Below are positions 1,631 to 35,327 of a stretch of 64,000 bases of DNA, piece by piece. Position 1 is the first letter of the stretch, and every line of letters starts with the position of its first letter. The position numbers and the translations under genes are program-made. The notes under the pieces were generated by a model. The model made no database searches. It was given only the letters and a program-made list of their open reading frames with translations, and was not told where the DNA came from. Source of the DNA: Candidatus Omnitrophota bacterium (lineage in GTDB: Bacteria > Omnitrophota > Gorgyraeia > Duberdicusellales > 4484-171); NCBI GenBank assembly GCA_021735655.1, contig JAIPGM010000004.1, forward strand, positions 32,001-96,000. Reading direction: 5' to 3'.

Positions 1631-4111
1631 TTATATTGCCCGCTTGTACCTTCGCATCAACAAAGAATTAGATACTACGCTGACCGAACTAAAGGCCATG
1701 GCTGCGCCGGCAATCATCGGGTTCAATAAAAACCCAAATATTGGATAAAGTATACCGGCAGCAACCGGTATACCGGCAGCATTATAAAAGAAAGCCCAGA
1801 AAAGATTCTGTTTTATCTTCTTCATCGCATAATGCGATAAATCCATAGCCATAACCACATCGCGCAGGTCATCCTTAATCAATACTATGTCGCCGGATTC
1901 AATAGCTACATCGGTTCCGCTGCCGATAGCCAACCCAATATCAGCCTGAGTTAAAGCCGGGGCATCATTTATACCGTCGCCGACCATAGCTACTTTTAAA
2001 CCTTCAGCCTGAAGCTTCTTGACTTCATTAGCTTTATCTTTAGGCAGGACTTCGGCTAAAACCCGCTTAATACCCAGTTGTTTGGCTATGGCTTGGCCGG
2101 TGCGTTTGTTATCGCCGGTAATCATAATCACCTGTTTTTTCATCTGTTTCAATTTAGCCACTGCCGCTTTAGAAAATTCCTTCAAAGTATCGGCTACGGC
2201 GATAATTCCGATTAGCTTATCGGCAGCAGCTACCAGCATAGCGGTTTTCCCTTCGTTCTCTAATTTTTCTAAATCTTTTTCTGCTTTTAAAATATCGATA
2301 TTCTCTTCCTCCATAAACTTTCGATTACCCAGTAAAACTCTTACTCCCTCTACCCGGGCCAATACGCCTTTGCCGGTGATTGAGTTAAAATCAGTGATTG
2401 CTTTTAATTCTATAGCCTTATCTTTGGCTCCTTTTACAATTGCTTCAGCCAGAGGATGCTCAGAACTTTTCTCCACCGACGCCGCTAAACACAATACTTC
2501 ACTATCAGCTTTATCATAAGCTACCACATCTGTAATTTGCGGTTCTCCCTTGGTAAGTGTACCGGTCTTATCAAAAACTATTGCTTGAATTTGATGGGCT
2601 AGCTGAAGGCTTTCGGCACTCTTGATCAATATGCCGTTTTCTGCCCCTAAACCGGTCCCGACCATTACGGCAGTCGGGGTAGCTAAGCCCAAAGCACAGG
2701 GACAGGCAATAATTAAAACGGCAATGAAAATAGTTAAAGCAAAAACAAACCCCTGGCCAACAGCCAGCCAGATAATAAAAGCTAAGATAGCAATTCCTAC
2801 TACTGCCGGCACAAAATAGGCTGATATCTTATCGGCTAATTCCTGAATTGGCGCCTTAGACCCCTGGGCTTCTTCGACCAATCTGATGATCTGAGCCAAA
2901 GCCGTATCTTTGCCGACTTTGGTAGCTTTAAACTTAAAACTACCGGTTTTATTTATGGTAGCTCCGATAACCTGGCTGCCTTTAGATTTTTCAACCGGGA
3001 TACTTTCTCCGCTGATCATTGACTCATCCACGCTGGAATAGCCGTCTGTTACTTGGCCGTCAACCGGAATTTTTGCTCCCGGCCTGACTATGACAATATC
3101 GCCGGCTATTACTTCTTCTACCGAAACCTCCTGCTCCTTACCGTTACGTAAAACCAGGGCTTTTTTCGCTTGAAGGCCCATGAGTTTTTTTATCGCCTCA
3201 GAAGTTTTACCTTTAGCGATTGATTCTAAAAACTTACCTAACAAGATAAAAGCAATCAAGAATCCAGCAATCTCATAATAAAGATTTTTCATATCAAAAG
3301 CAGATGAGCCCGACCAGATCACTATCGAAACATATAAACTATAAAGGTAAGCTGCTCCCACACCTAAAGCCACCAAAGTATCCATGTTCGCAGTATGGGT
3401 TTTAATCACTGCCGAAAAACCTCGAGTAAAAAACTGATAGCCGGCAAACATAATCGGAGTAGCCAGGAGAAACTGAATCAAAGCCATATTATTTACCATC
3501 CAGGAAGCAAGAGGCAGTTTTAACCCCGAACTCATCGCAAAATACATCAGCGGCGCAGCCAGAATAATCGAAACTATAAACTTAAGTTTAAGAATTCTTA
3601 TCTCCCTTTCTCGAGTTTCTTTTTCTAAATCCGGGGTGGCTTTTTCTTGCTCAATCGGCTCATAGCCAGCGGCTTTAATTACGGCTTTAATCTTCTCGGC
3701 AGAAAGAATAGCCGGATCAAATTTAATCTTTGCCCGCTGGTTCACCAATAACTCTTTGCTGGTTATCCCCTTAAGGCTGTTTAGGGCTCCCTCTACCGTG
3801 CTAAGGCAATGAGGGTTGTCCATACCGATAACTTTAAGCTCTAACAGGCCTGCGGTTTTCTTATTGCCGGCTACCTTGTAGCCGGTTTTCTCTATAGCCT
3901 TATGCAAAACCTCCAAATTAACTTTACCGGAATCATAGTCAACATAAGCCTTTTCGCTGGCAAAATTAACCCTGGCTTGTTTTACTCCCGGAGTTTTTTT
4001 CAAGGCACCTTCAATAGTTGCCACACAGCTCGCACAGTGCATACCGCTTATACTGATAACCGTCTTACTTAAACCAGACATAGATTTACCCTCTCCTTTC
4101 GTTATCCGCAA
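1631..4111 (-). CDS. copA: Copper-translocating P1B-type ATPase
   Basis: 826 aa. Two N-terminal HMA domains (GMHCASCV; second one degenerate). CPC transmembrane motif ([13 protein letters not shown]), DKTGTLT phosphorylation site, GDGINDAP hinge. Confidence 0.95.
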
Positions 4112-4140
4112 CCCCCTGACTGTTCTTTTCCGAGATACTC

Positions 4141-4533
4141 TTAATGATGAGCCTCATGTCCGGAAGGCATTTCTTTTTCACTGTTTTTTCTGCCCTGGCC
4201 GGCATCATCTTTACCCATCATCGGACAACTTTTCATCATTTCTTTCATCATTTGCCGCATTCCTTCGCTATCGATGCTTAGCTCAACCTCTTTCACCAAA
4301 TTTAACTTTTTATCATATTTAACAAGCTTATTGCCTAAAAGCAACACTACCCCTCCATCTTCAGTGGCCACTAATTGTTTTTTAACCATCATCTGCATCA
4401 TACCTTTTCCCATCATACTCTTGCTCATCATACCTTTATCCATCATCTCTGAAGAATGTTCTTCAGCAAAAACAGAAAAGTTAACAACAACCAACAGCAA
4501 ACTACCTAAAACAATACCGGTAAACCGCTTCAT
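4141..4533 (-). CDS. Periplasmic methionine-rich (MxxM/MMxxM repeats) putative Cu(I)-binding protein
   Basis: Signal peptide, then [20 protein letters not shown] and [17 protein letters not shown], ending in a His-rich GHEAHH tail. Directly upstream of copA. Confidence 0.5.
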
Positions 4534-4534
4534 C

Positions 4535-4723
4535 TTACGCCTCCTTTTTTAATCCGGGAATAAAAGCCGGAACCCGTTTTCTGTACTCCAGAAATTCCCA
4601 GTCGAACTGCTTCTCGACTTCTTTTTCCTCTCTCATCGCTAACTTGTAGTAAACCGACACAAGAACCGGCCACATCCCGTATGCATAACTGTCTAAACCT
4701 TCTCCAGGCATATTTATCTTCAT
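4535..4723 (-). pseudogene. Fragment resembling the C-terminus of an isoprenylcysteine carboxyl methyltransferase (ICMT/PEMT) family protein
   Basis: 62 aa ending ...REEKEVEKQFDWEFLEYRKRVPAFIP, like the ICMT C-terminal EE..L...FG.eY..Y...V.r.iP motif. The full family is about 150-200 aa, and there is no room for the rest before metW. Confidence 0.3.
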
Positions 4724-4870
4724 TTATAATTATGCCTAGTCTAGGCAAGACTGTAAATTAGACCTTAGCCCAATAGCCAACTCTATGATACCACACCCCC
4801 CTATGGTATGTCAAGATGATATTAAAATATTTTCCGCTCATAACTCCTTGAGAATAAGGGTCTTACAAGC

Positions 4871-5461
4871 TTAATCCTTAGTAACCAAAAAAATAGCGTT
4901 TAAAGCGAAAAGGTTGGGGAAAAACTTTACTAACTTCCTTTTGCCAAGATAAAAGGCACTAGAAACCTTTATCTGTTTTTCAACACAGAAGTCTTTAAAG
5001 TCATTAATGCTCAAAAAATGAACATTGGGTGTATCATGCCAATGGTAAGGTAAAGAAGCGGTTATCGGAACTTTTCCTCTAAAGAAAATTCTAAAGCGGG
5101 CCGGAAAATAGGTAAAATTGGGAAAGCCAACAATTACTTCTTTGCCAATCCTCAAAGATTCAGTCACTACGTAGTCGACTTTTTTAATTTCTTGCATACT
5201 TTGATTCAATATCACATAATCAAAAGCTTTAGCCGGATATCCAGAAAGCCCTGTTTCAATGTCGCCATGGAATACACTTAAATCCTTCTCAACACAATTA
5301 TAAATACCTCTCTCATCCAGCTCAATGCCTTGTGCTTTTACTTTCTTTTCTTTGACTAAAAAATGCAAAAGATCTCCATTGCCGCAGCCAAGATCAAGCA
5401 CCTTAGCTCCGGGTTTAACAATCTTATAGATTATCCTATGGTCCAAACGTATCTTATCCAT
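4871..5461 (-). CDS. metW: Methionine biosynthesis protein MetW (SAM-MTase-like partner of MetX)
   Basis: [30 protein letters not shown] are conserved MetW blocks. It overlaps metX by 8 nt. Confidence 0.8.
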
Positions 5462-6596
5462 TTTTCACCAAATCATAGGTCTTTCTCAAAAAATTCTTAA
5501 CCAAACGGGTCTGTTCGTCAACCTCCAGCAAAAAAGCATCGTGGCCATAGGTTGACTCTATTTCACAATAAGTAACATCAACTTGTCGAGTTTTAAGCTG
5601 CTGAATTATCTCTCTAGACTGATAAGGCGGATAGAGCCAGTCTGACTTAAAGGCAATAACTAAGAAGCGAGTATCAATTTTGTTACTCTTCGCCACTAAT
5701 TTCCCTTCTGACAAATCAAGATAGTCCATAGCCTTAGTGATATAAAGGTAGCTGTTAGCATCAAAGCGCTTTACAAAGCTATCTCCTTGATATCTCAAAT
5801 ATCCTTCAACTTCAAAGTCAGTCTTAAAACTAAAGCTATAGTTTTTTTCTTTAAGTTTACGGGAAAACTTCTTCTCCATCGACTCATCGCTCATATAAGT
5901 TATATGACCGATCATCCTAGCAACAGACAAACCCCTCTGAGGCTGAGATTTTCCGTAGTAATTACCCTCAAGCCAATCTGGGTCAGCCATTACCGCCTGC
6001 CTCCCAACCTCATCGAAAGCTATTTGCTGAGGAGAATGCTTTAAGGCCGTAGCTATAGGAATTGCCGATGAGATGACTTCCGGATAAGAAGCTGCCCATT
6101 GTAAGACTTGCATACCACCCATTGATCCGCCAGTAACACAAAGTATCTTCTTAATGCCTAAATAATCTATAAGTCTCTTCTGAGCCGCGACCATATCAGC
6201 AATGGTAATTATCGGAAAATCAATACCATAAGGTTTATTGGTCTTAGGGCTAGTTGAAGAAGGCCCGGTTGAGCCTTTACAGCCACCAAGAACATTAGAG
6301 CAAATTATGAAATACTTATCGGTATCAAAAGCTTTGCCCGGGCCAATCATTATATCCCACCAGCCGGGTTTTTCGTCTCCTTGATGAAAACCAGCCGCAT
6401 GAGCATCACCGCTTAAAGCATGGGCAACTAGAACGGCATTGGTTTTAGCTGAATTTAATTCCCCATAAGTTTCATAGCAAAGAGTAATCGGGCCTAGCTC
6501 TCCCCCATTAGCTAGCTTAAGCTGATCAGACTGATCAGCAAAAGTAAAACTCTGCGGTTCAATAATTCCTAAGCTATTTTTAGCATTTTTGCTCAT
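5454..6596 (-). CDS. metX: Homoserine O-acetyltransferase
   Basis: 380 aa alpha/beta hydrolase with the GGSMGGMQ nucleophile elbow and a typical MetXA N-terminus ([13 protein letters not shown]). Confidence 0.9.
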
Positions 6597-6673: not shown

Positions 6674-7600
6674 TTAGCCCTTAAACAACCAGGTTGAAAG
6701 ATATCTTTCGCCAGTATCGGGTAGAATTGCCACAATTGTTTTTCCTGAGGAATCTTTACGCTTGGCTACCTCTAGGGCCGCCCACATTGCTGCTCCGCTG
6801 GATATACCGACAAAAATTCCTTCCTTCTTAGCTAAAAGGCCAGCAACTTTACCGGCATCAACATGGGACACCTTTATAATTTCATCGATTATTTCTCGAT
6901 TTAAAACTTCCGGGATAAACCCGGCACCGATTCCCTGAATTTTATGCGAACCTGGTTTTTCACCGGAGATAACCGCTGACTCAACTGGTTCAAGGGCGAT
7001 AACCTTTAAAGATTTATTTTTTTTCTTTAAGGCTTCGCCTACCCCGGTTACTGTGCCTCCAGTACCAACCCCGGAAATAAAAATATCAATTTTTCCGCCA
7101 GTGGCTTCCCAAATTTCTTCGGCTGTTGTAATTCTATGAATCTCGGGATTAGCCGGATTATTAAACTGTTGAGGTACAAAACTGTTGGGAGTGTTTTTTG
7201 CAATTTCTTCTGCCTTTTCAACAGCCCCCTTCATGCCTTTAGCTCCTTCAGTCAATACTAATTCTGCTCCAAAAATCTCAAGAAGTTGCCGACGCTCAAT
7301 ACTCATTGTGTCAGGCATGGTAAGAATTAATCTATAGCCCTTAGCAGCACAAACAAAAGCTAAAGCTATCCCAGTATTTCCGCTAGTCGGTTCTACTATA
7401 ACCGAACCCTTCTTGATTAAACCTTTACTTTCAGCATCCGCAATCATTGCTGCGCCAATTCTGTCTTTAACGCTGGAAAGTGGATTAAAAGATTCTAATT
7501 TTGCCAATACTGTAGCCTGGGTATCTTTTGCCAAACGGTTGATTTTCACCAAAGGAGTATTGCCAATAGTTTTCGTAATATCATCTAATATTTTCGCCAC
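6674..7600 (-). CDS. cysK: Cysteine synthase (O-acetylserine sulfhydrylase)
   Basis: PLP-binding K in [22 protein letters not shown], GxGTGGT loop. 308 aa. Confidence 0.9.
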
Positions 7601-7617: not shown

Positions 7618-9916
<2,299 letters not shown>

Positions 9917-9922: not shown

Positions 9923-10777
9923 TTATAAACTTACCCAGTCCTCAGATACAATATTTCCTTTAATGCCTACCACTACACATTTCAACGGTACTTTTCTTTG
10001 GGCTTGGCCCAACCCTTCTTTTACTAAAGCCAAGAGACCACCACAGCAAGGAACCTCCATAATCATTACAGTTAAAGTATTGATTTTTGCCTCATCAGCC
10101 AAAATTTTTATCTTTTCTAAATAAACCTCTTTATTCGTATCTAATTTAGGGCAAGCAATAGCCAAAGATTTCCCAACTAGATATTTGGAATGAAAATTAC
10201 CCAAGGTATAAGCTACGCAATCAGCCGAAAGCAAAACATCTTTTCCCTGAAAATATGGCGCTCGGGGTGATACCAAATGTAATTGAAGCGGCCACTGCCT
10301 TAAAGCTGACGGTTGCTCTCCTGACACTTCTCCTATGTCTGGCTTATCAGAAAAATCCATCGTTCGCATCCCCGGACAACCCTGATGCGCCGCCACAAGC
10401 TTATCTTTAGCAACCGCAAAACCTTCAGGAATTTCTATGCCCTTTGTTTTTAACACTTCTAAGGCCTGTTTAAGGTATCCTCCTTCTCCGTGAACCTTCA
10501 AATGTTCAAGATGAGCTTTAATAGTACCTGCGCCTTGCTTTACAATATTCTCCATTACTTTTCTTTCGTCGTATTTTTCAGCTTCCCGTTCCTCAATGGT
10601 AATTGCATCTACCGGACAACTTCCGATACAAGCCCCTAGGCCATCACAAAAAAGATCACTAATCAAACGAACCTTTCCGTCAATAAGCTGTAAAGCCCCT
10701 TCGGGGCAATTAGGGATACAATCTCCGCAACCAGTGCATTTATCCAAATCAATTTTTATTATTTTTCTTTTTGACAT
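9923..10777 (-). CDS. Fe-S oxidoreductase: N-terminal 2x[4Fe-4S] ferredoxin domain fused to a CCG (HdrB/GlpC-like Cys-rich) domain
   Basis: CTGCGDCIPNCP and CDGLGACIGSCP ferredoxin motifs. C-terminal IACPKLD...about 35 aa...VPCCGG fits the C-x(31-39)-CCG pattern. Confidence 0.55.
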   Translation of the reverse strand: MSKRKIIKIDLDKCTGCGDCIPNCPEGALQLIDGKVRLISDLFCDGLGACIGSCPVDAITIEEREAEKYDERKVMENIVKQGAGTIKAHLEHLKVHGEGGYLKQALEVLKTKGIEIPEGFAVAKDKLVAAHQGCPGMRTMDFSDKPDIGEVSGEQPSALRQWPLQLHLVSPRAPYFQGKDVLLSADCVAYTLGNFHSKYLVGKSLAIACPKLDTNKEVYLEKIKILADEAKINTLTVMIMEVPCCGGLLALVKEGLGQAQRKVPLKCVVVGIKGNIVSEDWVSL

Positions 10778-10794
10778 GACAACCCTTTTCTAGT

Positions 10795-11238
10795 TTAAAT
10801 ATTATACATAAAAACACTCTTAGCATTCTTATCATTATATCGTTTAACTAAAGTTTCAAGAGTCACTGAATCCAAAGCCTTGATAATACTATTTCCGGTC
10901 TCATCCCAAAGTTGACGAACAATTGATACTGAGGCTGGTTGAAGACTATTATCATCTTGCAAATTATCAATTAAAGTTAAGCCACCTTCAAGAATTTCCA
11001 CTATTTCTCTAACCGTTATCTCTCCGGGAGCTTTCGCTAAAGAATAGCCACCGTGGGCTCCACGAAAAGAATTAACTAACCCTTGGGTCCGTAAAGGAAT
11101 AATGATCTGACTAAGGTACTTTTCAGAAATATCTTCCTTCCGGGCAATGTCTTTTAAAAAAACTGGCCCCTTATCGCAGGCCAAGGCTAAGGCCAGCATC
11201 AACCGAGTTCCATATCGACTACGAGCTGAAATTTTCAT
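10795..11238 (-). CDS. Rrf2-family transcriptional regulator (IscR/CymR-like)
   Basis: N-terminal wHTH MKISARSRYGTRLMLALA...; 147 aa. Embedded in the sulfur-assimilation array. Confidence 0.8.
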   Translation of the reverse strand: MKISARSRYGTRLMLALALACDKGPVFLKDIARKEDISEKYLSQIIIPLRTQGLVNSFRGAHGGYSLAKAPGEITVREIVEILEGGLTLIDNLQDDNSLQPASVSIVRQLWDETGNSIIKALDSVTLETLVKRYNDKNAKSVFMYNI

Positions 11239-11284: not shown

Positions 11285-12013
11285 TCAAATTCTATTACTG
11301 ACCCCTAATTTGTCAAGGAAGTTATCACGACCGATCTCTTCGATTAAAAGAGCCAATCTTTGCCTGGGTTTAGCATTATCTTTGAAAAAATTAACTACCT
11401 TCTCGATTAAAGAAAGCACCTCATCTTCGGTAAAAATTTTACCTAGCTTGAATCCCAACCGGGGAGTTCTCCCTCCACAGCCACCCAAATAAACAGCATA
11501 GCCAACTATTTTCTCAGAATGATTAAGGTCAATCTCACCGTGTATACCAATTTCAGAACTTTCGGATCGAGTGCAACGATTAGGACAACCGGAAATCGCA
11601 ATTTTAAATTTATGCGGTAGATCCAATCCGCAAACAATATTTAACTCCTTTTCTATTCTTTCAGAAAGAGAAAAGGTATTAACCAAACCTCGCTTACACC
11701 AGTTATTACCCGGACAAACAGTTGTAACTCTAAGTCGCGGGCCAGAAGTTCCAACTTTAATTTCAGCGAGTCTTAGCTCTTTCTCCACTTTCCCAATGTC
11801 TTCGAAACGAATAAAAGGAATTTCTACTGACTGACGAACTGTAAAATGAACAAAACTCCTAGCATACTTTTTAGAAATCTGAGAAAGTTTCTCTAGCTGC
11901 TCAGCTGAAGAGTTACCGGCAAGCATCCTTGTACGTAAAGTAAAATAGCCATCTTCTCGGGCCTTCAAAAACCCTCTCTTTTTTAAAGCATCTAGGTCTA
12001 TCTTATCCTTCAT
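11285..12013 (-). CDS. Small (about 27 kDa) siroheme-[4Fe-4S] sulfite/nitrite reductase-family protein (alSiR-type small sulfite reductase)
   Basis: NIR_SIR ferredoxin-like half-domain plus 4Fe-4S/siroheme Cys motifs CPGNNWC (C-x5-C) and CPNRC (C-x3-C). Only 242 aa. Confidence 0.65.
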   Translation of the reverse strand: MKDKIDLDALKKRGFLKAREDGYFTLRTRMLAGNSSAEQLEKLSQISKKYARSFVHFTVRQSVEIPFIRFEDIGKVEKELRLAEIKVGTSGPRLRVTTVCPGNNWCKRGLVNTFSLSERIEKELNIVCGLDLPHKFKIAISGCPNRCTRSESSEIGIHGEIDLNHSEKIVGYAVYLGGCGGRTPRLGFKLGKIFTEDEVLSLIEKVVNFFKDNAKPRQRLALLIEEIGRDNFLDKLGVSNRI

Positions 12014-13323
12014 TAGCTAACCTCTTTTTTTACAAAACAACTTAAAGTCTTTTTAACCGAAATTATTGATTTAGCAATATCAGCTGAACTATGGGCAAAA
12101 GATAAAAAATTTGCCTCATATTCCGAAGGGGCAAAGTAAACCCCTTGCTCCAAAGCAGACCGATAAAATAAACTAAACAAAGCCCTGTCGGAAAACTTAA
12201 AGCTAAACATTGATCGATATCTACTTATCTTTAAATCTATACCATTAGCAACAGCATATTTACTTATCGAATCACAAAACTGCTTAGCGAACTGGTTAAT
12301 TATTTCGTAATTTTTAGCTTCCTGGTTCAAAATTCTCAAGGTTGCAATGCCGGCTTGCATAACAATTGGATTACCGGAAAAAGTTGACGCCTGATAGACC
12401 TCTCCCTGAGGAGCTAAACAATTCATAATCTTAGAGCTGCCACCGTAGGCACCAATCGGTAAACCACCACCAATAATCTTTCCTAAACAGATTAAATCAG
12501 CATTTATGCCAACAGTTTGTAAAAAAGAACCAAAGTTAAACCTAAAACCGGTAATCACCTCATCGGCGACAAGCAAACTATCATGCTTTTCAGTAATCAA
12601 CCGCAAAGCTTTCAAAAATTCTATATCCGGAAGGGTTACTCCGTAATTTCCACCGACTGGTTCAACCAAAACTGCAGCGATTGACTTACCGTACTGCTTA
12701 AAAATGCTATTCAAGGCTTCGGTATCACCATAATCAACAATTAAAGTATGTTTTATAAACTCAAGCGGTACACCTTTGCTTAAAGGAATCTGTCCGGTTG
12801 CCAAGCCCGAACCAGCTTCAGCCAATAAATAATCGGCATGGCCATGATAAGAGTTTTTGAACTTAACTATTTTATCTCTTTGAGTGTAGCCACGAGCTAG
12901 ACGAACCGCACTCATTAAGCTTTCAGTCCCTGAATTAACAAAACGGATCTTTTCGATAGCCGGGATTGCTGCGTTAATGGTTCGGGCAAGCTCAACTTCA
13001 CTTTGATGAGTTGCGCCAAAACCAAACCCTTTAGTTAATTGATTTCTAACTGCTTCAACCACTTCTGGACGAGCCTGACCCAAAATCATTGCACCAAAAG
13101 ATGAACAATAGTCAATAAACTCTCTACCTTCATAGTCGTATATCTTTGAACCATGGCCTTGCTTTAATAATACCGGTTCACCGCCGACATAGGAAAAACT
13201 CCGTACCGGACTATTCACTCCGCCAACTAAAAACTGTTTGGCTTCTTTAAACAACTGACTGTTCTCTGAGTAATATTCTTTCTTGTTCATATTTTTTTTG
13301 CCAATAAGCAATATCAGCTGCAT
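12013..13323 (-). CDS. hemL: Glutamate-1-semialdehyde 2,1-aminomutase
   Basis: Class-III aminotransferase: VADEVITGFR, GNYGVTLPDIEFL, GTFSGNP. 436 aa (true start may be an internal Met). Confidence 0.9.
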   Translation of the reverse strand: MQLILLIGKKNMNKKEYYSENSQLFKEAKQFLVGGVNSPVRSFSYVGGEPVLLKQGHGSKIYDYEGREFIDYCSSFGAMILGQARPEVVEAVRNQLTKGFGFGATHQSEVELARTINAAIPAIEKIRFVNSGTESLMSAVRLARGYTQRDKIVKFKNSYHGHADYLLAEAGSGLATGQIPLSKGVPLEFIKHTLIVDYGDTEALNSIFKQYGKSIAAVLVEPVGGNYGVTLPDIEFLKALRLITEKHDSLLVADEVITGFRFNFGSFLQTVGINADLICLGKIIGGGLPIGAYGGSSKIMNCLAPQGEVYQASTFSGNPIVMQAGIATLRILNQEAKNYEIINQFAKQFCDSISKYAVANGIDLKISRYRSMFSFKFSDRALFSLFYRSALEQGVYFAPSEYEANFLSFAHSSADIAKSIISVKKTLSCFVKKEVS

Positions 13324-14221
13324 GGTAACTGATTATATAGTCTGCTCCCGCACGCTGGATTGCTCCAATAAGTTCGAACACAAAGTCTTCCTCCGACCAA
13401 AAACCCTGTTGGGCGCCAAGCTTAGCCAAGGCATATTCACCACTTACATTGTAAACAGCTAAAGGAAAATTAAATTGCCTTTTAGCCTGAACAATTATAT
13501 CCAGATAAGCTAAAGCCGGCTTAACCATTACAATGCCTGCTCCTTCTTTGATATCTTGTCTTATCTTCTCTAGGGCAGTTTCTCGATCATGATAATCAAG
13601 TTGATAGGCTCGACGATCTCCAAAACGCGGAGCTGAATCAGCGATTTCACGAAAAGGACCATAAAATTGAGAAGCAAACTTTGCTGAATAAGCCATAATT
13701 TTAACCTGATTATAACCATTTTGATCAAGCTTATTGCGAATTGCCCGAACTTGATTCTCGGCCATTGCTGAAGGACAAACAAAATCAGCGCCAGCTTTTG
13801 CATGTAAAAGTGCCATTGCCGCAAGAGCTTTAAGAGTTAGGGTATTATCAATGGCGACTTGACCCTCCAGAACTATTCCACAATGACCATGTGAACTATA
13901 AGCACACAAGCAAATATCAGTAAAAATAGTAAAACTAGGATAACGAGACTTAATAAAACTTATAGCCTCGCAAAGAAAATAATTACTCTCCCAAGCTGAT
14001 TTTCCTCGCCAACTTTTTTGAACTGGCAGACCAAAAAGTAAAATATTCCTAATCCCAAGATGATCAAGATTAACCAGCTCATCCTTTAAGGCTTCTAAAG
14101 AATATTTAAAAACTCCTGACATTGACTTAACCTCATCGGCCGGACCTTCCTTTTCTTTTACAAACAAAGGATAGATCAACTTTGAAAGCGATAAATTAAA
14201 CTTATTACTTTCTTTTATCAT
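13247..14221 (-). CDS. hemB: Porphobilinogen synthase (delta-aminolevulinate dehydratase)
   Basis: 324 aa. Active-site region ...VKPALAYLDII..., metal-Cys cluster DICLCAYSSHGHCG. Confidence 0.9.
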   Translation of the reverse strand: MIKESNKFNLSLSKLIYPLFVKEKEGPADEVKSMSGVFKYSLEALKDELVNLDHLGIRNILLFGLPVQKSWRGKSAWESNYFLCEAISFIKSRYPSFTIFTDICLCAYSSHGHCGIVLEGQVAIDNTLTLKALAAMALLHAKAGADFVCPSAMAENQVRAIRNKLDQNGYNQVKIMAYSAKFASQFYGPFREIADSAPRFGDRRAYQLDYHDRETALEKIRQDIKEGAGIVMVKPALAYLDIIVQAKRQFNFPLAVYNVSGEYALAKLGAQQGFWSEEDFVFELIGAIQRAGADYIISYHAADIAYWQKKYEQERILLREQSVV

Positions 14222-14954
14222 TTCTAAATTGCCTCACTCTCTCTCTAACTACTTCACCAACGATTAAAACCGCCGGTGGTTTAATTTTCGATTTTTTAGA
14301 TCTTTTTTCAATAGTTCCTATTGTTGCCTGTAAAATCCGCGACTTTTTTGTAGTTGCCCGTTCAATAAAAGCGCAAGGTACTGTATCTTTTCGACCGGAC
14401 TTGCGCAAAGCTTTAACTACATTTCCAATATTAGCTACGGCCATAAGATAAACTAAGGTTTCACAATCAGGGGCATCTATCAAAGCTTTTTTGTCTTTCT
14501 TTCTGCCAGTTAAAATGGCCACCGATGAAATTCGATTTTTTATTGTAAGCGGGATTTCAGCACTTAAAGGCCCTGCCAAAGCTGAAGTTATCCCGGGAAT
14601 AATTTCGTAGTTAACTTTTTTTAAATTAAGATACCTTGCTTCCTCAGCTCCCCGGCTAAAAATAAAAGGGTCCCCCCCTTTAAGCCGAACTACCGTTTTA
14701 AAAGCCAAGGACTTCTTGTATAAAAGCCGATTGATTTGGTTTTGCTCTTTTAAATGTAAACCGTCACTTTTACCAACACAAATCTTCTCACAAGACGGTT
14801 GAACTTCTCTTAATAATTCCGGAGCCGATAAAAAATCATAAAGAACACAATCGGCTGTACGAAGAGCCCTGACTCCCTTTAGGCTAATCAATTCAGGATC
14901 TCCTGGTCCAGCTCCAACTATATATACTTTTCCTTTATTATTGTTAATTGACAT
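14205..14954 (-). CDS. cobA: Uroporphyrinogen-III C-methyltransferase (SUMT; siroheme/precorrin-2 synthesis)
   Basis: VYIVGAGPGDPELISLKG TP-methylase N-terminus. 249 aa, no fused HemD domain. Confidence 0.85.
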   Translation of the reverse strand: MSINNNKGKVYIVGAGPGDPELISLKGVRALRTADCVLYDFLSAPELLREVQPSCEKICVGKSDGLHLKEQNQINRLLYKKSLAFKTVVRLKGGDPFIFSRGAEEARYLNLKKVNYEIIPGITSALAGPLSAEIPLTIKNRISSVAILTGRKKDKKALIDAPDCETLVYLMAVANIGNVVKALRKSGRKDTVPCAFIERATTKKSRILQATIGTIEKRSKKSKIKPPAVLIVGEVVRERVRQFRNDKRK

Positions 14955-17015: not shown

Positions 17016-17741
17016 TTATATCCCATCTCCGTCTAAATTAGACTTTAACGGCCGAGTGTGGATTCCACACTCACCACCGCATTTGCTAGTTCCAATCCAA
17101 CGTCCGGCCCGCTCATTGTCGTCATTAGTGATTCTGGTGCAAGGAGAGCAACCTAAAGAACGATAACCCTCCTTATAAAGAGGGTTCACCTTAACTTCAT
17201 ATAAGGCTAAATACTGCCAAACTTCTCTTTCTTTCCAAATGAGAATCGGATTAAGTTTTATCAATCCTTTATCGCGTTCCTCAACTTCCTTGTAATCGGT
17301 CCGGGTTCGACCCTCAGTACAACGCAATCCAGTAACCCAACAGGTAACTTTCATCTCATCCACCGCTCTCTTCACCGGCTCAACCTTTAAAACCTCACAA
17401 CATTGATCAGGATCAACATTGTATAATTCGGGCGATATCTCTGAATCATTCTTATATACTGCCAATTCCGGATAACGGACAACTTCTTGATTCATAAACT
17501 CAACTGTTTCTTTGGGCTTGAACCGAGTGGTTACAATAAACCCTTTTATTTTTGGGTCAACCTTCTTTGCCAAATCCCAAACCACAACTGAATCCTTACC
17601 TAAACTGTTAGCAACAACCAGGCCATCACCATATTTATCATATGCTTCTCTTATAAGTTGTAAGGATCGATCCACCTTTTGCTTAAAATTTAAAGTTTCA
17701 ACCAATACTTTCAAATCGTCTTGTGTGCCTAACAAACTCAT
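17016..17741 (-). CDS. cysH: Adenylyl-sulfate (APS) reductase, thioredoxin-dependent, Fe-S type
   Basis: PAPS_reduct fold (SLGKDSVVVWDL). CC...CxxC Fe-S cysteines (DQCCEV, GCSPCT). C-terminal catalytic KCGGECGIH like the ECGLH motif. Confidence 0.8.
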   Translation of the reverse strand: MSLLGTQDDLKVLVETLNFKQKVDRSLQLIREAYDKYGDGLVVANSLGKDSVVVWDLAKKVDPKIKGFIVTTRFKPKETVEFMNQEVVRYPELAVYKNDSEISPELYNVDPDQCCEVLKVEPVKRAVDEMKVTCWVTGLRCTEGRTRTDYKEVEERDKGLIKLNPILIWKEREVWQYLALYEVKVNPLYKEGYRSLGCSPCTRITNDDNERAGRWIGTSKCGGECGIHTRPLKSNLDGDGI

Positions 17742-17788: not shown

Positions 17789-18010
17789 TTAGATTTGATA
17801 CTCTATTTCCTTAATTCTTCCGAATTTTACCTTATTCCAAATTCGTTCATGTATATAGTAAAGGAATATCTTTACTGTATTTGCGGCAATGCCCACTACC
17901 AATGACTCTTTAACGTCTTTGGTATAAATATAGATAGCAATTATCGTAGTCAAAAAAGCAATTACCCGCCAAGTTAAAGATTTGACTAAAGATCGTTTTG
18001 GATGTTCCAT
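17789..18010 (-). CDS. Small 2-TM membrane protein (DUF2061-like)
   Basis: 73 aa, SLTWRVIAFLTTIIAIYIY... Directly upstream of cysH on the same strand. Confidence 0.45.
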   Translation of the reverse strand: MEHPKRSLVKSLTWRVIAFLTTIIAIYIYTKDVKESLVVGIAANTVKIFLYYIHERIWNKVKFGRIKEIEYQI

Positions 18011-18210
18011 TTACTCACTAAATAGTATAAAAATGTATTTTATACACTACCTATTCTATCAAAATACTAGCTAATACTTTCAAAAAATATAGGCGCACAA
18101 ACGCCTTTTTTAATCACTATCAATGCAATCTCTTTGATAGAGATTAAAATATACCATATTATTAAGAATTGTCAAGGATAAATTTTAAGTTTTTTAAACC
18201 TTGTTTCTAG

Positions 18211-18238
18211 TTGCTAAGTAGCCCAAATATGGTATTAT
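18211..18238 (+). promoter_or_regulatory. Candidate sigma70-type promoter for the thi operon (TTGCTA-16 bp-TATTAT)
   Basis: TTGCTA at 18211-18216 and TATTAT at 18233-18238, about 33 nt upstream of the thiE ATG at 18271. Confidence 0.3.
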
Positions 18239-18270
18239 TAAGGATAATAATCAAAATTAACCCCTGGGGA

Positions 18271-18924
18271 ATGAAGAGCATTAGCAATTACAACTTATAT
18301 TTAGTTACTGGTGAGCAACGCTCAGCTACAAAAAAAACCCTAGAAGTAGTGAGGTTAGCCATTAACGGCGGGGCAAATATTATCCAGCTACGTGATAAAA
18401 ATATGGCCCGGTCTGAGCTAGTCAGCTTAGGAAAAAAACTCTCGACATTAGCTAAGAGTAAGAATATAGTATTTATTGTTAACGACGACCCGGATTTAGC
18501 CGCTGAGCTAGATGCTGACGGAGTGCACCTAGGACAAACTGACATAGAAAAATACTCGGTAGAAAAAACAAGAAAACTAATCGGTAGGAATAAAATTATT
18601 GGCCTATCAACCCATTCCCTAGAACAAATAGAACAAGCTAATAAGCTTGATATTAATTACATTGCCTTTGGACCATTATTTGAAACTAAAACTAAAAACT
18701 ACTCAATTGGAACTAGAGATTTAACTAAAGCTTTATCGTTATCAAAATTTCCTTTAGTTTGTATTGGTGGTATAAACTCAAATAATATCGAAGAAGTTTT
18801 AAAGCTGGGCGCAACTAATATTGCTATGATTCGAGAAATTACTGAAAGTCAAGATATAGAAAAAAAAGTGAAACAGCTAAAAAGCCTGATAACCAAATAT
18901 AAAAAAAATGCAGATAACAATTAA
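18271..18924 (+). CDS. thiE: Thiamine-phosphate synthase
   Basis: Start chosen at the internal ATG (MKSISNYNLYLVTGEQ...), preceded by a GGGGAA RBS; the track ORF starts earlier at 18211. TMP-TENI fold blocks GANIIQLRDK and VHLGQTD. Confidence 0.85.
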   Translation: MKSISNYNLYLVTGEQRSATKKTLEVVRLAINGGANIIQLRDKNMARSELVSLGKKLSTLAKSKNIVFIVNDDPDLAAELDADGVHLGQTDIEKYSVEKTRKLIGRNKIIGLSTHSLEQIEQANKLDINYIAFGPLFETKTKNYSIGTRDLTKALSLSKFPLVCIGGINSNNIEEVLKLGATNIAMIREITESQDIEKKVKQLKSLITKYKKNADNN

Positions 18925-19108
18925 CGGGAAAAAAGAAATTATCGATAACCCTAAATCTCTCCTTGAGCTTATCGGTGAAAAAAAACTAAATAAAGAAAAA
19001 ATGGTAGTTGAGTTAAATCTCAAGATTATTCCCCGTGACAATCTTAAAAGTACTCAAATTCAAGAAGGAGATTCAATTGAATTTGTTAGCTTCGTAGGAG
19101 GAGGTTAA
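18908..19108 (+). CDS. thiS: Sulfur-carrier protein ThiS
   Basis: 66 aa ubiquitin-like protein ending in GG(G). Confidence 0.7.
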   Translation: MQITINGKKEIIDNPKSLLELIGEKKLNKEKMVVELNLKIIPRDNLKSTQIQEGDSIEFVSFVGGG

Positions 19109-19882
19109 ATGTCGGATTCATTAATAATCGCCGGACAAGAAATCAAAAACCGCCTTTTCGTGGGGACCGGTAAGTTTCCCAACAAACCAATCATAAAGGA
19201 AGTTTTAGAACAGGCTAAAACAGAAGTTGCAACCGTTGCTTTGCGCCGAATTGACCTAGAATCAAAAGAAGATAATATTCTTGATTACATTCCAACTAAC
19301 TGCACAGTTATGACTAACACCTCTGGTGCAAGAAACGCCCAGGAAGCAATCCGTATTGCTAGATTGAGTAAAGCTGCTGGCTGTGGAAATTGGATAAAAC
19401 TAGAGGTAATCGCCGACAATAAACACCTCCTGCCTGACAATCTAGAAACTTTAAAAGCTACTGAAGTTTTAGCCAAAGAAGGTTTTATAGTCCTGCCCTA
19501 TATGAGCCCTGATTTATCAGTAGCTAAAAAATTGATCGAGGTCGGAGCTGCTGCAGTTATGCCACTGGGCTCACCAATCGGCTCAAAACGCGGAGTAAAA
19601 ACTGCGGAATTAGTCAAAATTCTAATTAAAGAAATTGCTGAACCAATTATCGTTGACGCTGGAATTGGTTATCCATCAGAAGCAGCTTACTGTATGGAAC
19701 TAGGCTGTGCGGCGGTCTTAGTTAATACGGCCATAGCCACTGCCAAAGATCCGGTTAAAATGGCTGAAAGCTTCAACTTGGCAGTCCGTGCCGGCCGCCT
19801 GTCTTATCTTAACGCAACTAAAAGCTCTGGACAGGCATCAGCATCTTCTCCGCTTACCGGTTTCCTGCAAACAAGTGAATAG
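19109..19882 (+). CDS. thiG: Thiazole synthase
   Basis: 257 aa; [22 protein letters not shown] (ThiG Schiff-base/TIM-barrel blocks). Confidence 0.9.
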
Positions 19883-19884
19883 CT

Positions 19885-20955
19885 ATGAGTTTTTATAATA
19901 TTTATCACAAATACAAAAACTGCTCCTTTGAAGAACTACCCAACCAAGAGCTAACCAAGCTTCTTTCTCTTGAGGCTGAAAAATCTTTAGAAGCAATGGC
20001 TCAAAAAGCCAAAACTTTGACCTTGCAGAATTTCGGAAAAACAATTAGCCTCTATACCCCACTCTACCTATCAAACTATTGCGAGAATGAATGCCTTTAC
20101 TGCGGATTCAATGCAAACAATAAAATTCCAAGAAGGAAACTAAAAATTGATGAGCTAAAAAAAGAAGCTAAATTCATCGCTAAGACCGGCCTGCAACACA
20201 TACTAATTCTTACTGGCGAATCGAAAAAGCTAAGCCCACTCTCCTACATAAAAGAATCTGTAAAAATACTAAATAAATTATTTAGTTCAATATCAATTGA
20301 AATTTACCCCTTAAGTCAAACAGAATATAAAGAACTTATCGCCGCGGGTGTCGACGGTCTAACAATTTATCAAGAGGTATATTCTCAATCAGAATACAAA
20401 AAACTCCATCCGGCTGGTCCAAAACAAGATTATCAATTTAGACTCGATGCTCCAGAAAGGGCTGCCCGAGCCGGTATACGTACCATTAACATCGGAAGCC
20501 TGCTAGGGCTAGCTCCTTGGCGAAAAGAAGCTTTTTTCATGCTAAAGCATGCTGAATACCTGCAAAATAAATACCCAGAAATAGAAATGAGCATTTCCTT
20601 ACCGCGGCTAAGACCTCAATTTAATAACTTTCAAACTCCTTATGAGGTAAGTGATAAAAACATCGTCCAAATAATTACTGCCGCCAGGATATTTATGCCA
20701 CGCTTAGGAATTACCCTATCAACCCGGGAAAATTCTCAGCTTCGCAATAACCTAATTAAATTAGGCATAACTAAAATGAGCGCTGGTTCAACCACTGCTG
20801 TCGGCGGTCATACTTTGGAAAAAACTTACATTAAAAATTCACTCCAGTTTGAAATTTCTGACAAACGAGATGTTTCTCAAATCAAAATAATGTTGCTTAA
20901 AGAAGGATACCAACCAGTGCTAAAGGACTGGGTCGGAGCACTGCAAAATGAATAA
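19885..20955 (+). CDS. thiH: 2-iminoacetate synthase (tyrosine lyase), radical SAM
   Basis: [10 protein letters not shown] radical-SAM cluster motif; 356 aa; thiS-thiG-thiH-thiF context. Confidence 0.8.
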
Positions 20956-21559
20956 CTTTGAAAAAGAAATCATTAAGTACTTTGGTAAAGATCAATTTAA
21001 AAAAATTCAATCAGTAACCATCGGCATTGCTGGGCTTGGTGGCCTTGGCTCAAACTGCAGCCATAATCTTATCCGCTGCGGTTTTAAAAAACTAATAATT
21101 GTTGATTTTGATAAGGTTGAGCTTTCAAATTTAAACCGCCAATTTTACTTCTTAAATCAAATAGGCAAGCGCAAAGTTGATGCCCTTAAAGAAAATCTGC
21201 TTAAAATTAACCCCGACATCAAAATCACGACTTATTGTGAAAAATTAGAAAAAAACAACCTAAAAAATATTTTTAAAGGTTGTTCTATTATCATTGAAGC
21301 TTTCGATAAAGCCGAATACAAAAGCTTAATCGTTGAAACTTTCCTCCCTACCGATAAGTTTATTGTTTCGGCCTCAGGCTTAGCCGGATATGGAAAAAGT
21401 GATGAAATAAAAATTCACCGCCTAAGAAAAAATCTGGCTATTGTTGGTGACCTTAAGTCCGAAGCCAGCCAAGACTTGCCACCGCTTTCTCCACGGGTAA
21501 ATATTGCGGCAGCTAAACAAGCTGATGTGGTATTAAACTATATATTAAAAAACATTTAA
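20948..21559 (+). CDS. thiF: ThiF/MoeB-family E1-like adenylyltransferase
   Basis: [10 protein letters not shown] nucleotide-binding loop. 203 aa. Confidence 0.75.
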
Positions 21560-26749: not shown

Positions 26750-27250
26750 TTAAAAACCTATCGAAAGAATAAGTTTCGTTTGGTCATTAATATTAACCAA
26801 TTCAACAGTACTTTCAGTAATCTCAACCACTCTATACTCACCAACCAAATCTTCTTCCTTAAGAGTATTACCATTAATGATTGCAACCGGAAAATCTAAA
26901 TCATAGATAATCCCATCAAGACGATAGACCCCTGCTTTTCCTGACCCAGGGACACTCTTTGAGGGAAGTGGCAACTTAAAACCTAAAGATTTTTGTTGAT
27001 CAGACAAGTCTCCTTTCTTTATTAGCGAAAATAAAGAGCTGGCTTTTTCTAGCAAGTATTGTCGGCCAACAGTGAAAGAAAAAACTAAAATAGTTACCGC
27101 TAAAATTACTATTAAAATCGAAATAATTTTTTTGTTCAATGACCACCTTGACTTTTTAGGCTGGGTTAAATTTTTACCTGGCTCTTCTTGAGAGCTACCC
27201 GATTTATCATTACCTTCCAACTTTTTTAAAGCATCATAAATTATACTCAC
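26750..27250 (-). CDS. GspB/PilP-like small membrane-anchored protein (partner of the ExeA-like ATPase)
   Basis: One TM segment; the C-terminal block GIIYDLDFPVAIINGNTLKEEDLVGEYRVVEI is paralogous to the C-terminus of the PilP-like ORF at 29610-29981. Confidence 0.4.
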   Translation of the reverse strand: MSIIYDALKKLEGNDKSGSSQEEPGKNLTQPKKSRWSLNKKIISILIVILAVTILVFSFTVGRQYLLEKASSLFSLIKKGDLSDQQKSLGFKLPLPSKSVPGSGKAGVYRLDGIIYDLDFPVAIINGNTLKEEDLVGEYRVVEITESTVELVNINDQTKLILSIGF

Positions 27251-28044
27251 TGCAACTCCTTAATACATGAAGAGAACATCTCTGGACCAAAAATACTTTT
27301 TTCTTTAACAAATCCTAAAAGTAAAACTCGATCACAAAGCATATTAACTAAACGAGGAATCCCTTTAGAAAATTCATAAATTAACTTAAAAGACTCTGGG
27401 GCAATTACGATATGTTCAGCCTCAGCTTGTCTTAACCGAAAATTAACATACCGCTCCACTTCAGCCTGGTTTAAAGGACTAAGGTTATGTTTTACGAAAA
27501 TACGTTGATGTATTTGTCGTAAATCAAACCGATTAAGCTTTTCAGTCAACTCCGGCTGGCCAACAAGAACAATTTGCAACAACTTATCAGTTGAAGTTTC
27601 TAAGTTAGAAAGTAGGCGGATTTGTTCTAACTGACGATTGCTTAAATCCTGAGCTTCATCAATAATGACTACTGCCTTTTCACCCCTCAAATTAATATCG
27701 ACCAAAAAAGAATTTAGGGCATTGACAATATCGAGACGGGTTTTCTTTTTAAGCTTCAAACCAAAATCCTCTACTATTGCTCGCAATAACTGAACCTCGC
27801 TAAAATAAGGATTAAGGATCAAAGAAGTCCTAGTGTTAGCCGAAATTCGATTAAGAAAAGCCTTACAAAGAGTAGTTTTACCTGTCCCTACTTCGCCAGT
27901 GATAAGAATAATGCCTTTTTTCTCTTGAACTCCATAAGATAACGCCGCCAATGCTTCCTTGTGAGATAAGCTCTCAAAGAAAAATTGTGGATCAGAAGTA
28001 ATATTGAAAGGTATCTTTTTTAAACCGTAAAGTTCTAGGTACAT
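27247..28044 (-). CDS. ExeA/GspA/MshM-like AAA+ ATPase
   Basis: Walker A ITGEVGTGKTTL; Walker B VVIIDEAQ; 265 aa. Adjacent to the secretin gene. Confidence 0.75.
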   Translation of the reverse strand: MYLELYGLKKIPFNITSDPQFFFESLSHKEALAALSYGVQEKKGIILITGEVGTGKTTLCKAFLNRISANTRTSLILNPYFSEVQLLRAIVEDFGLKLKKKTRLDIVNALNSFLVDINLRGEKAVVIIDEAQDLSNRQLEQIRLLSNLETSTDKLLQIVLVGQPELTEKLNRFDLRQIHQRIFVKHNLSPLNQAEVERYVNFRLRQAEAEHIVIAPESFKLIYEFSKGIPRLVNMLCDRVLLLGFVKEKSIFGPEMFSSCIKELQ

Positions 28045-28077
28045 CTTTAGGCTCTATTGATGAAATCAGAAAGAAAA

Positions 28078-29610: not shown

Positions 29611-29981
29611 TATTCCTCCAGTTCTAAAGTAAACCCTTGGTTATTTTTCTCTAGAATAACTTTCCTTCTTTCAATAGTTAAGACTTTATACTCACCAATC
29701 ATGTCTCCGATTTTAACTACTTCATTATTAATAATTGCCACTGATTCTTCTTCAGAGTATATTATACCTCCTAATTCCATGTTTGTAACGTCTGTTTCGC
29801 GAGGTATAAGAATTAGCCCATTTCGGCTAACTAAAGGGACAAACGGATCCCGGCTATTTAGCCCAAAAGAATATTTTTCTAAACTCGCATCGGTGGTCGC
29901 CGTTTGAGAGAATCCCAAAGTCGGCAAAACCAACAATAACGAAATAAAAAATACAACTATTACTTTTCGGCTATCGCGCAT
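29610..29981 (-). CDS. PilP-like pilus assembly lipoprotein/periplasmic protein
   Basis: 123 aa with signal peptide; its position between pilO and pilQ; beta-domain shared with the 26750-27250 ORF. Confidence 0.45.
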   Translation of the reverse strand: MRDSRKVIVVFFISLLLVLPTLGFSQTATTDASLEKYSFGLNSRDPFVPLVSRNGLILIPRETDVTNMELGGIIYSEEESVAIINNEVVKIGDMIGEYKVLTIERRKVILEKNNQGFTLELEE

Positions 29982-30499
29982 ACTACTATTTCTATAGAAT
30001 TATAAGGGTAATCTGAAGAAACTTTTAACTCTTTAATATCAAAAAAATATTGGCTAGTTTGAAGATATTCCAAAAATAAAGCTAAGTTATGAAATTTAGC
30101 TTTGGCCTCTATACTGATTGGCAAATAGAATAAATTCTCTTCCGATTCCGCAAGATAGTTAATCAATTCGCCAGGGAGAAAAGACTTTATCTCTACCCCA
30201 AACTCCTTGCTAGCGGTTGAAATAAAAGATAGTGATTCTGAAGCTTCCTGAGAAAGAATGAGCTTGCTTCGACTATTCTCTATTTGATTTTTAAGCTCTT
30301 GATTAACCTTTGAATACTCATTAAGCCTAGGCCAATCATTCTCGGTGCTCTTAATTTGCTGACCGATTAAAGCGATTTTCTTATTAAGGCCAATCACTCT
30401 CTTTATGCTCCAAGGAAGCAAAATCAGTATTTCAATTACAATGACCGCGATTAAAAGTGAAAACGCAATTATTTTTTTATCAAAATTTATTTTTTGCAT
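29960..30499 (-). CDS. PilO-like inner-membrane pilus assembly protein
   Basis: Single N-terminal TM plus coiled coil, 179 aa; its position in the pilMNOPQ order. Confidence 0.5.
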   Translation of the reverse strand: MQKINFDKKIIAFSLLIAVIVIEILILLPWSIKRVIGLNKKIALIGQQIKSTENDWPRLNEYSKVNQELKNQIENSRSKLILSQEASESLSFISTASKEFGVEIKSFLPGELINYLAESEENLFYLPISIEAKAKFHNLALFLEYLQTSQYFFDIKELKVSSDYPYNSIEIVVCAIAEK

Positions 30500-31050: not shown

Positions 31051-31063
31051 GCTAATAAATACA

Positions 31064-32194: not shown

Positions 32195-32210
32195 CGCAAT
32201 AGGAAGAATT

Positions 32211-35203: not shown

Positions 35204-35215
35204 ATCTTTATCGAT

Positions 35216-35243
35216 ATTTTACCATACTAAGTTTAAATCGCAA
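35216..35243 (-). promoter_or_regulatory. Candidate sigma70-like promoter for the OST gene (TTGCGA-16 bp-TAAAAT on the minus strand)
   Basis: Minus-strand TTGCGA (35243-35238) and TAAAAT (35221-35216), between the pilin A terminator and the OST ATG at 35203. Confidence 0.25.
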
Positions 35244-35304: not shown

Positions 35305-35327
35305 TTATTATTTAATCACTTTTTTGC

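Follow-up and report, generated by a model that had tools for sequence, protein, structure and literature searches.

In a 64,000-nucleotide stretch of a Candidatus Omnitrophota genome (assembly GCA_021735655.1, contig JAIPGM010000004.1, positions 32,001 to 96,000; the window, in what follows), we identified a gene for a 242-residue protein, referred to here as the reductase, that very probably is an assimilatory sulfite reductase with the alSiR/Group I Dsr-LP architecture, likely forming a self-complementing homodimer and drawing its electrons from a general carrier. Biochemical knowledge of small sulfite reductases with a single repeat dates back to the 1980s, and the reductase is a divergent, phylum-wide Omnitrophota member of this already known enzyme class. 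The assimilatory role is assigned by strong guilt by association, because the conserved neighbors of the gene encode CysH, the enzymes of siroheme synthesis, CysK and MetY. The coordinates of all genes and sites discussed below are collected in Table 1.

The open reading frame (ORF) and its domain and motif content are real, far beyond chance expectation. Its ATG start codon, which is preceded by a Shine-Dalgarno-like AAGAGG, overlaps by one nucleotide the TAA stop codon of hemL (TAATG). In the predicted protein, 19 N-terminal residues are followed by one NIR_SIR_ferr domain (PF03460, residues 20-81, E-value 1.4e-16) and one NIR_SIR domain, the 4Fe-4S/siroheme domain (PF01077, residues 90-236, E-value 2.3e-31). 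The latter contains the complete siroheme-[4Fe-4S] motif, C100-x5-C106 and C143-x3-C147. A preliminary description of this DNA, made from the sequence of the window, had read the gene product as a small single-repeat protein with C-x5-C and C-x3-C motifs and had singled out the siroheme-ligating cysteines as the feature to be checked in an alignment; all four are present and are shared without exception by the 121 family members, in full agreement with that reading. Three basic residues, R95, K135 and K137, are invariant in the same 121 sequences, and R27 is found in 120 of them. These four residues align with R355, R423, K460 and K462 of Fsr and with the RKYK segment of Mycobacterium tuberculosis SirA; in Fsr, they are the sulfite-binding residues and have been described as 'perfectly conserved across sulfite reductases' (bioRxiv 10.1101/2022.04.07.487323). 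Two-repeat enzymes have the anion-binding arginines and lysines in one repeat and the cluster cysteines in the other; in SirA, RKYK belongs to the N-terminal repeat and CX3C to the C-terminal one. The reductase carries both sets in one short chain. Two additional cysteines are specific to the Omnitrophota family, namely C128 (120 of the 121 sequences), which is located in a three-residue insert just before the HKFK segment with the active-site lysines (KxK), and C179 (119 of 121), in the GGxGG glycine-rich siroheme-loop region. Both are largely missing from other small reductases, and one of the matched proteins, P0127, also has a cysteine at the C179 position.

The AlphaFold2 model of the reductase, built from 60 sequences, has a pLDDT of 94.9 and a pTM of 0.90, and Foldseek comparisons yielded TMq values of 0.83 for M. 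tuberculosis NirA/SirA, 0.81-0.82 for Fsr, 0.75-0.80 for DsrA/B, about 0.75 for maize SiR and about 0.65 for Escherichia coli CysI. The sequence matches to solved structures in the Protein Data Bank (PDB) include no free-standing small reductase. With sequence and structure taken together, the best match among solved proteins is the C-terminal module of Fsr (PDB 7np8, 7npa and 9tn7; E-values 5e-27 to 9e-26), with 28-29% identity overall, 36-39% over the core columns, and the same four cysteines and the same four arginines and lysines. In contrast to Fsr, the reductase has no N-terminal FrhB-like F420H2-oxidase half, which was found neither in the ORF nor in the adjacent genes, and lacks the 2x[4Fe-4S] ferredoxin insertion: the alignment jumps from residue 485 to 544 of the Fsr chain while the query advances from 159 to 170, so that about 55 residues are skipped, and no CxxCxxCxxxC motif was found in the 242 residues. 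The two proteins also differ in origin, bacterial for the reductase and methanogen for Fsr, and in context, which is assimilatory in the former case and one of sulfite detoxification in the latter. The preliminary description had held that a grouping with coenzyme F420-dependent enzymes would speak against a sulfite reductase. The nearest solved relatives do come from such an enzyme, yet this does not really count against the assignment because it is the N-terminal FrhB-like half, missing from the reductase, that makes Fsr dependent on F420, and the C-terminal module of Fsr is itself a sulfite reductase.

The alSiR/Group I Dsr-LP class was defined by Susanti and Mukhopadhyay in 2012 and includes DVU_1597 from Desulfovibrio vulgaris along with proteins from Desulfuromonas acetoxidans and Methanosarcina barkeri (P590) (PMC3448663). 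Members consist of a single repeat of about 210-250 residues with the coupled CX5C...CX3C siroheme-[4Fe-4S] motif and without a peripheral ferredoxin domain, and are required to retain at least three of the four sulfite-binding arginines and lysines; the reductase has this design and all four residues (the 'Id' pattern), as the preliminary description had sensed when it likened the protein to the small assimilatory-type sulfite reductases. The reductase is thus a predicted member of the class by these published architecture criteria, with DVU_1597 compared by description only. Differences from the class are evident as well: the Omnitrophota proteins form a separate clade, are at most 38% identical to the small homologs that were found outside the phylum, possess the additional C128 and C179, and are encoded in an unambiguous assimilatory operon, whereas the physiological role of the classical alSiR has been called unclear and the full sulfate pathway is absent from most archaea that have an alSiR (PMC6286981). 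The Fsr structure paper lists alSiR as only 'presumably' assimilatory (bioRxiv 10.1101/2022.04.07.487323).

None of the curated NCBIfam models comes near its cut-off with the reductase as the query (bits/cut-off: NirB 90/578; ferredoxin-nitrite reductase NirA, NF007125, 86/594; AsrC, TIGR02912, 81.5/324.1; DsrA, TIGR02064, 61/393; TIGR02066, the DsrAB test, 55/342; NF010029, applied like the next-named models to the CysI/Sir type, 49/457; CobG 33/235; CysI, TIGR02041, 32/757; sir, TIGR02042, 24/732), and each of the better known types differs from it in architecture. CysI, Sir and M. tuberculosis SirA (NirA) stand at the same point of the pathway as the reductase, after cysH and before cysK, and share with it the cofactor chemistry and, over one repeat, the fold, but they contain two fused repeats in about 500-570 residues, more than twice the size of the reductase, so that in the latter both halves of the active site would have to come from identical chains. 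AsrC and the other Group III Dsr-LP proteins, to which many of the nearest database neighbors belong by architecture, have the same single-repeat siroheme reductase core; however, the 2x[4Fe-4S] insertion that follows CX3C in AsrC is missing in the reductase, and AsrC works with AsrA and AsrB, whereas no AsrA- or AsrB-like neighbors of the reductase were found in 90 related loci. DsrA and DsrB are encoded by paired genes for proteins of about 380-440 residues with a ferredoxin insert, accompanied by dsrC and dsrMK, in contrast to the single gene for the reductase, for which no such neighbors were found. The ferredoxin-nitrite reductases of the NirA type have two repeats in about 500-600 residues, as opposed to the one repeat of the reductase, in whose conserved context there are no nitrogen-assimilation genes.

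The reductase is 100% identical to a 'hypothetical protein' in the NCBI database from a metagenome-assembled genome (MAG) of Candidatus Omnitrophica. Its best 120 homologs are 231-251 residues long, with identities of 62-80% within the family, and every named one comes from Omnitrophota. After clustering of a library at 50% identity, a single representative of the full-length family is left, and the next full-length matches have an E-value of 1e-47 with 31-38% identity. The distant matches show three architectures: small proteins (about 210-250 residues) that lack a ferredoxin insert; proteins of about 280-300 residues with a 2x[4Fe-4S] insert, similar to Group III Dsr-LP and AsrC and including the 'sulfite reductase-related proteins' of Methanosarcina; and NirA-like proteins of 500-800 residues with two repeats. 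Many uncharacterized proteins of the last kind (P0121, P0126 and others) contain the CX5C...GCX3C motifs in both repeats, and in one of these (P0121, 528 residues) two repeats are fused of which only one has a ferredoxin insert, an arrangement that resembles a single-chain DsrAB analog. In neighbor-joining trees built from the match columns of hidden Markov models, with 200 bootstrap replicates, the Omnitrophota proteins are monophyletic in 200 of 200 replicates, and their sister group varies among the single-repeat classes and the C-terminal modules of Fsr. With named references left out, 146 of 200 replicates grouped the clade with the single-repeat classes. The Fsr, M. tuberculosis SirA and tobacco nitrite reductase (NiR) references were fragments taken from phmmer alignments to the query and thus possibly biased toward it; with these included, the three Fsr fragments joined the clade in a small neighboring group in 127 of 200 replicates, a placement of query-selected fragments that is only a lead.

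The preliminary description placed the gene where a CysI would be expected, and the genomic context agrees with this. In the window, the gene belongs to a minus-strand string that runs from 18010 down to 4871 and consists of the genes for DUF2061, cysH, sirC, hemA, hemC, cobA, hemB, hemL, the reductase, an Rrf2-family regulator, a 284-residue ferredoxin-like protein (Fd284), a ThiI-like PP-loop protein, metY, cysK, metX and metW. We mapped the window proteins onto 90 Omnitrophota loci, 11 from species-representative genomes and 79 from metagenomes, which were collected by a genome scan built on an alignment of 8 sequences; many of these contigs are short, and neighbor counts are given for the loci with enough flanking sequence. 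The upstream neighbor of the reductase gene is hemL in 58 of 61 such loci, and the downstream neighbor in 54 loci is metY (20), rrf2 (8), cysK (5) or another gene (21). Among all 90 loci, CysH is encoded in 35, CysK in 41 and MetY in 30, and in the long loci the arrangement (Rrf2)-(DUF2061)-cysH-(cysK)-sirC-hemA-hemC-cobA-hemB-hemL-reductase-(metY-cysK-metX-metW) recurs. One relative (locus L142) has the gene order cysH-cysD-cysN-sirC-hemA-hemC-cobA-hemB-hemL-reductase-cysK-metY, with cysH, cysD and cysN located ahead of the siroheme genes (positions 1655-5085 of that locus) and a CysN of 602 residues bearing a C-terminal APS-kinase-like extension; as judged from its predicted gene products, this is a complete sulfate-to-cysteine operon. 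In two loci (L010 and L012), a PHO4/PiT-family permease gene is inserted between cysH and cysK, and in two others (L011 and L136) the reductase gene lies next to cysH or cysK, with no hem genes. A Planctomycetaceae MAG (L036, 9654-16155) encodes a small reductase with 31% identity to the query, and downstream of it come the genes of a sulfate-type ABC transporter (binding protein, two permeases and a CysA-type ATPase) and cysH, so that, by the predicted gene functions, it is a second phylum with a single-repeat reductase in a sulfate-assimilation cluster. The gene for the small membrane protein DUF2061 is the first gene, 5' of cysH, in many other Omnitrophota loci (L003-L007, L089, L103 and others). 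The Rfam search across the operon gave no riboswitch match.

The preliminary description further called the protein the only sulfite reductase of the pathway. This stands for the window, where tblastn detected no paralog and no second NIR_SIR gene. Scans with tblastn and motifs of the window and the 90 loci revealed no second sulfite reductase, and the only sulfate-activation genes found were the cysDN of L142.

These observations can be combined in a probable model of the pathway. CysH, which has the Fe-S motif typical of adenosine 5'-phosphosulfate (APS) reductases, would produce sulfite, and the reductase would convert it to sulfide in a six-electron reduction at the siroheme, which is predicted to be coupled via Cys147 (or an equivalent residue) to the [4Fe-4S] cluster held by Cys100, Cys106, Cys143 and Cys147, with the anion bound by R27, R95, K135 and K137. 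The sulfide would then be incorporated into cysteine by CysK and into homocysteine by MetY. The genes between cysH and the reductase gene are predicted to supply the siroheme cofactor, the reductase being apparently translationally coupled to the last of them, hemL, and would appear to serve this one client enzyme. Because one chain holds just one sulfite/nitrite-reductase repeat, the functional unit is most likely a homodimer in which each protomer would complete the siroheme pocket of the other, yielding two composite active sites. Just such an arrangement has been proposed for a primordial homodimer, with one monomer providing the siroheme-[4Fe-4S] part and the other the substrate/siroheme site, reciprocally (bioRxiv 10.1101/2022.04.07.487323). 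The label 'monomeric', which the preliminary description attached to this kind of protein, is accordingly doubtful in the case of the reductase, given the argument of the Fsr structure papers that a single repeat must dimerize. The electrons would most likely be delivered by a general low-potential carrier, a ferredoxin or flavodoxin, encoded elsewhere in the genome rather than by a dedicated partner in the operon.

Several points weigh against this model. The characterized alSiR of D. vulgaris has been described as a monomer (PMC3448663), which bears on the dimer part. It is common for siroheme enzymes to accept sulfite as well as nitrite, and the four arginine and lysine residues do not separate the two activities; the substrate proposed for the clade is a prediction from sequence and context. 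No sat, cysDN or cysC gene is present in the 64-kb window, and the full pathway is therefore not seen within it. The operon includes no hemD and, in searches against Pfam and NCBIfam, no recognizable sirohydrochlorin ferrochelatase, and so covers the supply of the cofactor only in part. Finally, no electron donor for the reductase emerged from the neighborhoods. The HemC, SirC and HemA proteins of the operon are short (218, 157 and 337 residues, respectively) and have the same lengths in relatives (e.g., L003, L142 and L161); in E. coli, it is the C-terminal domain of HemC that carries the cofactor cysteine.

A bolder version of the homodimer model, which we consider rather unlikely, is that the Omnitrophota proteins are the extant form of the 'elementary' self-complementing homodimeric module postulated as the ancestor of the Fsr C-terminal module and DsrAB. 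Under this proposal, C128 and C179 would be a new functional element (for instance a switch under redox control, a relay of electrons or sulfur through thiols, or a covalent link to the cofactor akin to the Tyr-Cys bond of M. tuberculosis SirA) that might allow the enzyme to work without a ferredoxin domain or a dedicated partner, and the siroheme would come from a pathway without recognizable genes for HemD or the chelatase.

Regarding the electron donor, the preliminary description considered the neighboring ferredoxin-like protein, which it named 'Fd-CCG', a plausible dedicated donor. The name is not borne out: Fd284 has Fer4 domains and PF27217 (the AF_0155-type domain), only its ferredoxin part matches solved structures, and the suspected CCG domain was rejected, there being no match to PF02754 and merely a literal CCGG tetrapeptide. 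That Fd284 is the dedicated donor in this genome appears improbable. Its gene lies two genes downstream of the reductase gene on the same strand with short gaps, the protein has an N-terminal 2x[4Fe-4S] domain, and the closest relatives (L097, L109 and L161) have retained the Rrf2-Fd284-ThiI-like insert. However, this block is common only to those relatives, Fd284 being encoded in just 4 of the 90 loci, and in 65 of 67 loci no ferredoxin-type CxxCxxCxxxCP motif was found within 3 kb of the reductase gene. Furthermore, Fd284 belongs to a family of more than 8000 members with 64-67% identity to proteins from unrelated phyla including archaea (Altiarchaeota, Nitrospirae, Kiritimatiellae and Fibrobacterota), and elsewhere its gene overlaps rrf2 in a cluster for oxidative stress (rubrerythrin, glutaredoxin, AhpC and DsbD; L163, 5592-6870, from another Omnitrophota genome) or adjoins the gene for the hybrid-cluster protein Hcp (L011, 3974-6614). 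A sigma-70-like consensus match (11/12) at the 3' end of the reductase ORF, ahead of rrf2, also raises the possibility that the genes beyond it are transcribed separately. A dedicated role of Fd284 is thus not supported, and the protein may have an opportunistic role in this particular lineage. In the window, L163 and L011, Rrf2 and Fd284 behave as a two-gene module (9923-11238 in the window). Only the closest relatives (L002, L097, L109 and L161) possess the ThiI-like/NFACT-R_2 gene that separates Fd284 from metY.

A dissimilatory, reversible or detoxifying sulfite reductase, involved in energy metabolism, protection or sulfide oxidation, is an alternative with only a slight chance of being correct. 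It was proposed for the Omnitrophota by Seymour et al. (2023), who interpreted COG2221 proteins of this phylum as putative reversible dissimilatory DsrA, and the homologs of the reductase carry the same COG2221 'DsrA' name in the JGI annotation; the nearest solved relatives, the Fsr proteins, are sulfite-detoxifying enzymes. The conserved partners of the reductase gene, however, are cysH, the siroheme synthesis genes, cysK, metY, metX, metW, a sulfate-type permease and cysDN, and no dsrB, dsrC, dsrMK or aprAB-like gene was seen in the 90 neighborhoods; the protein itself falls far short of the DsrA model cut-off and lacks the ferredoxin insert of DsrA and DsrB.

It is very unlikely that the reductase is a minimal NirA-like assimilatory nitrite reductase. 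The two highest NCBIfam scores are those of NirB and ferredoxin-nitrite reductase, siroheme enzymes cross-react, and Group II Fsr is reported to be a nitrite reductase (PMC9295563). Against this, both scores are far below the cut-offs, the conserved neighborhood contains no gene for a nitrate/nitrite transporter, a nitrate reductase or a glutamine synthetase, and the two arginines that are replaced by lysine and glycine in Group II Fsr are retained in the reductase. The preliminary description had itself pointed to a grouping with nitrite reductases as contrary evidence; in our trees, the clade grouped with half-domains of the NirA type in no more than about 20% of the replicates when references were left out and in 3 of 200 when they were included. 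The phmmer alignment of the reductase to tobacco NiR covers the C-terminal repeat of the latter and not the repeat with Asn226, the residue of plant nitrite reductase that was considered against K137 as a possible sulfite/nitrite discriminator. A tetrapyrrole-modifying, CobG-like enzyme of the NIR_SIR superfamily, as the position at the end of a tetrapyrrole operon, the translational coupling to hemL and the weak CobG match might suggest, has next to no chance of being the answer, given the CobG cut-off, the lack of other corrin genes, an operon that starts with cysH and runs on into cysK and metY, and the two loci (L011 and L136) in which the gene follows cysH or cysK without hem genes.

The remaining features of the operon are listed in Table 1, with the CC...CxxC and ECGIH motifs of CysH being the mark of the Fe-S-containing APS-reductase type. 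Elsewhere, the window encodes a copper P-type ATPase, a thiamine cluster (thiE, thiS, thiG, thiH and thiF) and a large type IV pilus/type II secretion-like cluster, in which several genes are pilin-like.

Table 1. Genes and sites of the sulfite reductase operon and other regions of the window (positions counted from the first nucleotide of the window)
Feature	Position	Strand	Basis or remark
Copper P-type ATPase	1631-4111	-	
metX-metW (homoserine O-acetyltransferase and partner)	4871..6596	-	PF00561 and PF07021
cysK (cysteine synthase), sulfide consumer	6674..7600	-	PF00291
metY (O-acetylhomoserine sulfhydrylase), sulfide consumer	7618..8913	-	PF01053
ThiI-like PP-loop ATPase fused to NFACT-R_2 (RNA-binding-type) domain	8927..9916	-	Pfam
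Fd284, 2x[4Fe-4S] ferredoxin domain and AF_0155-type C-terminal domain, 284 residues	9923..10777	-	Fer4, PF27217
Rrf2-family regulator, CymR-like below cut-off	10795..11238	-	PF02082; NF047409 CymR, 135 bits (cut-off 195)
Reductase, single-repeat siroheme-[4Fe-4S] sulfite reductase (predicted), 242 residues	11285..12013	-	PF03460 and PF01077, Cys/Arg/Lys motifs, AlphaFold2 model, Foldseek
Sigma-70-like match 5' of Rrf2, inside 3' end of reductase ORF	11289-11316	-	11/12; consensus match only
hemL (glutamate-1-semialdehyde aminomutase)	12013..13323 (longest ORF; called gene starts at about 13254)	-	PF00202
hemB (porphobilinogen synthase)	13247..14221	-	PF00490 ALAD; kept in the operon of relatives
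cobA/sirA (uroporphyrinogen-III C-methyltransferase)	14205..14954	-	TIGR01469, 249.7 bits (cut-off 185)
hemC, short form without C-terminal domain, 218 residues	14944..15600	-	TIGR00212, 202 bits, profile positions 1-215 of 293
hemA (glutamyl-tRNA reductase), 337 residues	15548..16561	-	PF05201 and PF01488
sirC-like precorrin-2 dehydrogenase, NAD-binding part only, 157 residues	16530..17003	-	TIGR01470 cysG_Nterm, 123 bits, profile positions 1-140 of 205
cysH, APS/PAPS reductase family	17016..17741	-	NF002537, 171.6 bits (cut-off 154); CC...CxxC and ECGIH read from the translation
DUF2061 small membrane protein, 73 residues, first gene of the string	17789..18010	-	PF09834
Sigma-70-like promoter match 5' of the operon	18148..18175	-	11/12, TG-extended; consensus match only
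Thiamine cluster	18211-21559	+	
Type IV pilus/type II secretion-like cluster	27247-44497	-	

Taken as an assimilatory enzyme, the reductase provides a clean genomic case for the long-unclear physiological role of the small sulfite reductases: a whole bacterial phylum has the small single-repeat enzyme fixed in a cysH-siroheme-cysK/metY operon, which makes the assimilatory role directly testable, and the small size of the protein (242 residues) suits it to structural studies of a minimal sulfite reductase. Given the COG name that they share in the JGI annotation, the 'DsrA' calls in Omnitrophota likely refer to the reductase family, which by its context is biosynthetic. If these calls are indeed biosynthetic, which is the more likely case, the sulfur ecology inferred for these ultra-small bacteria would change.

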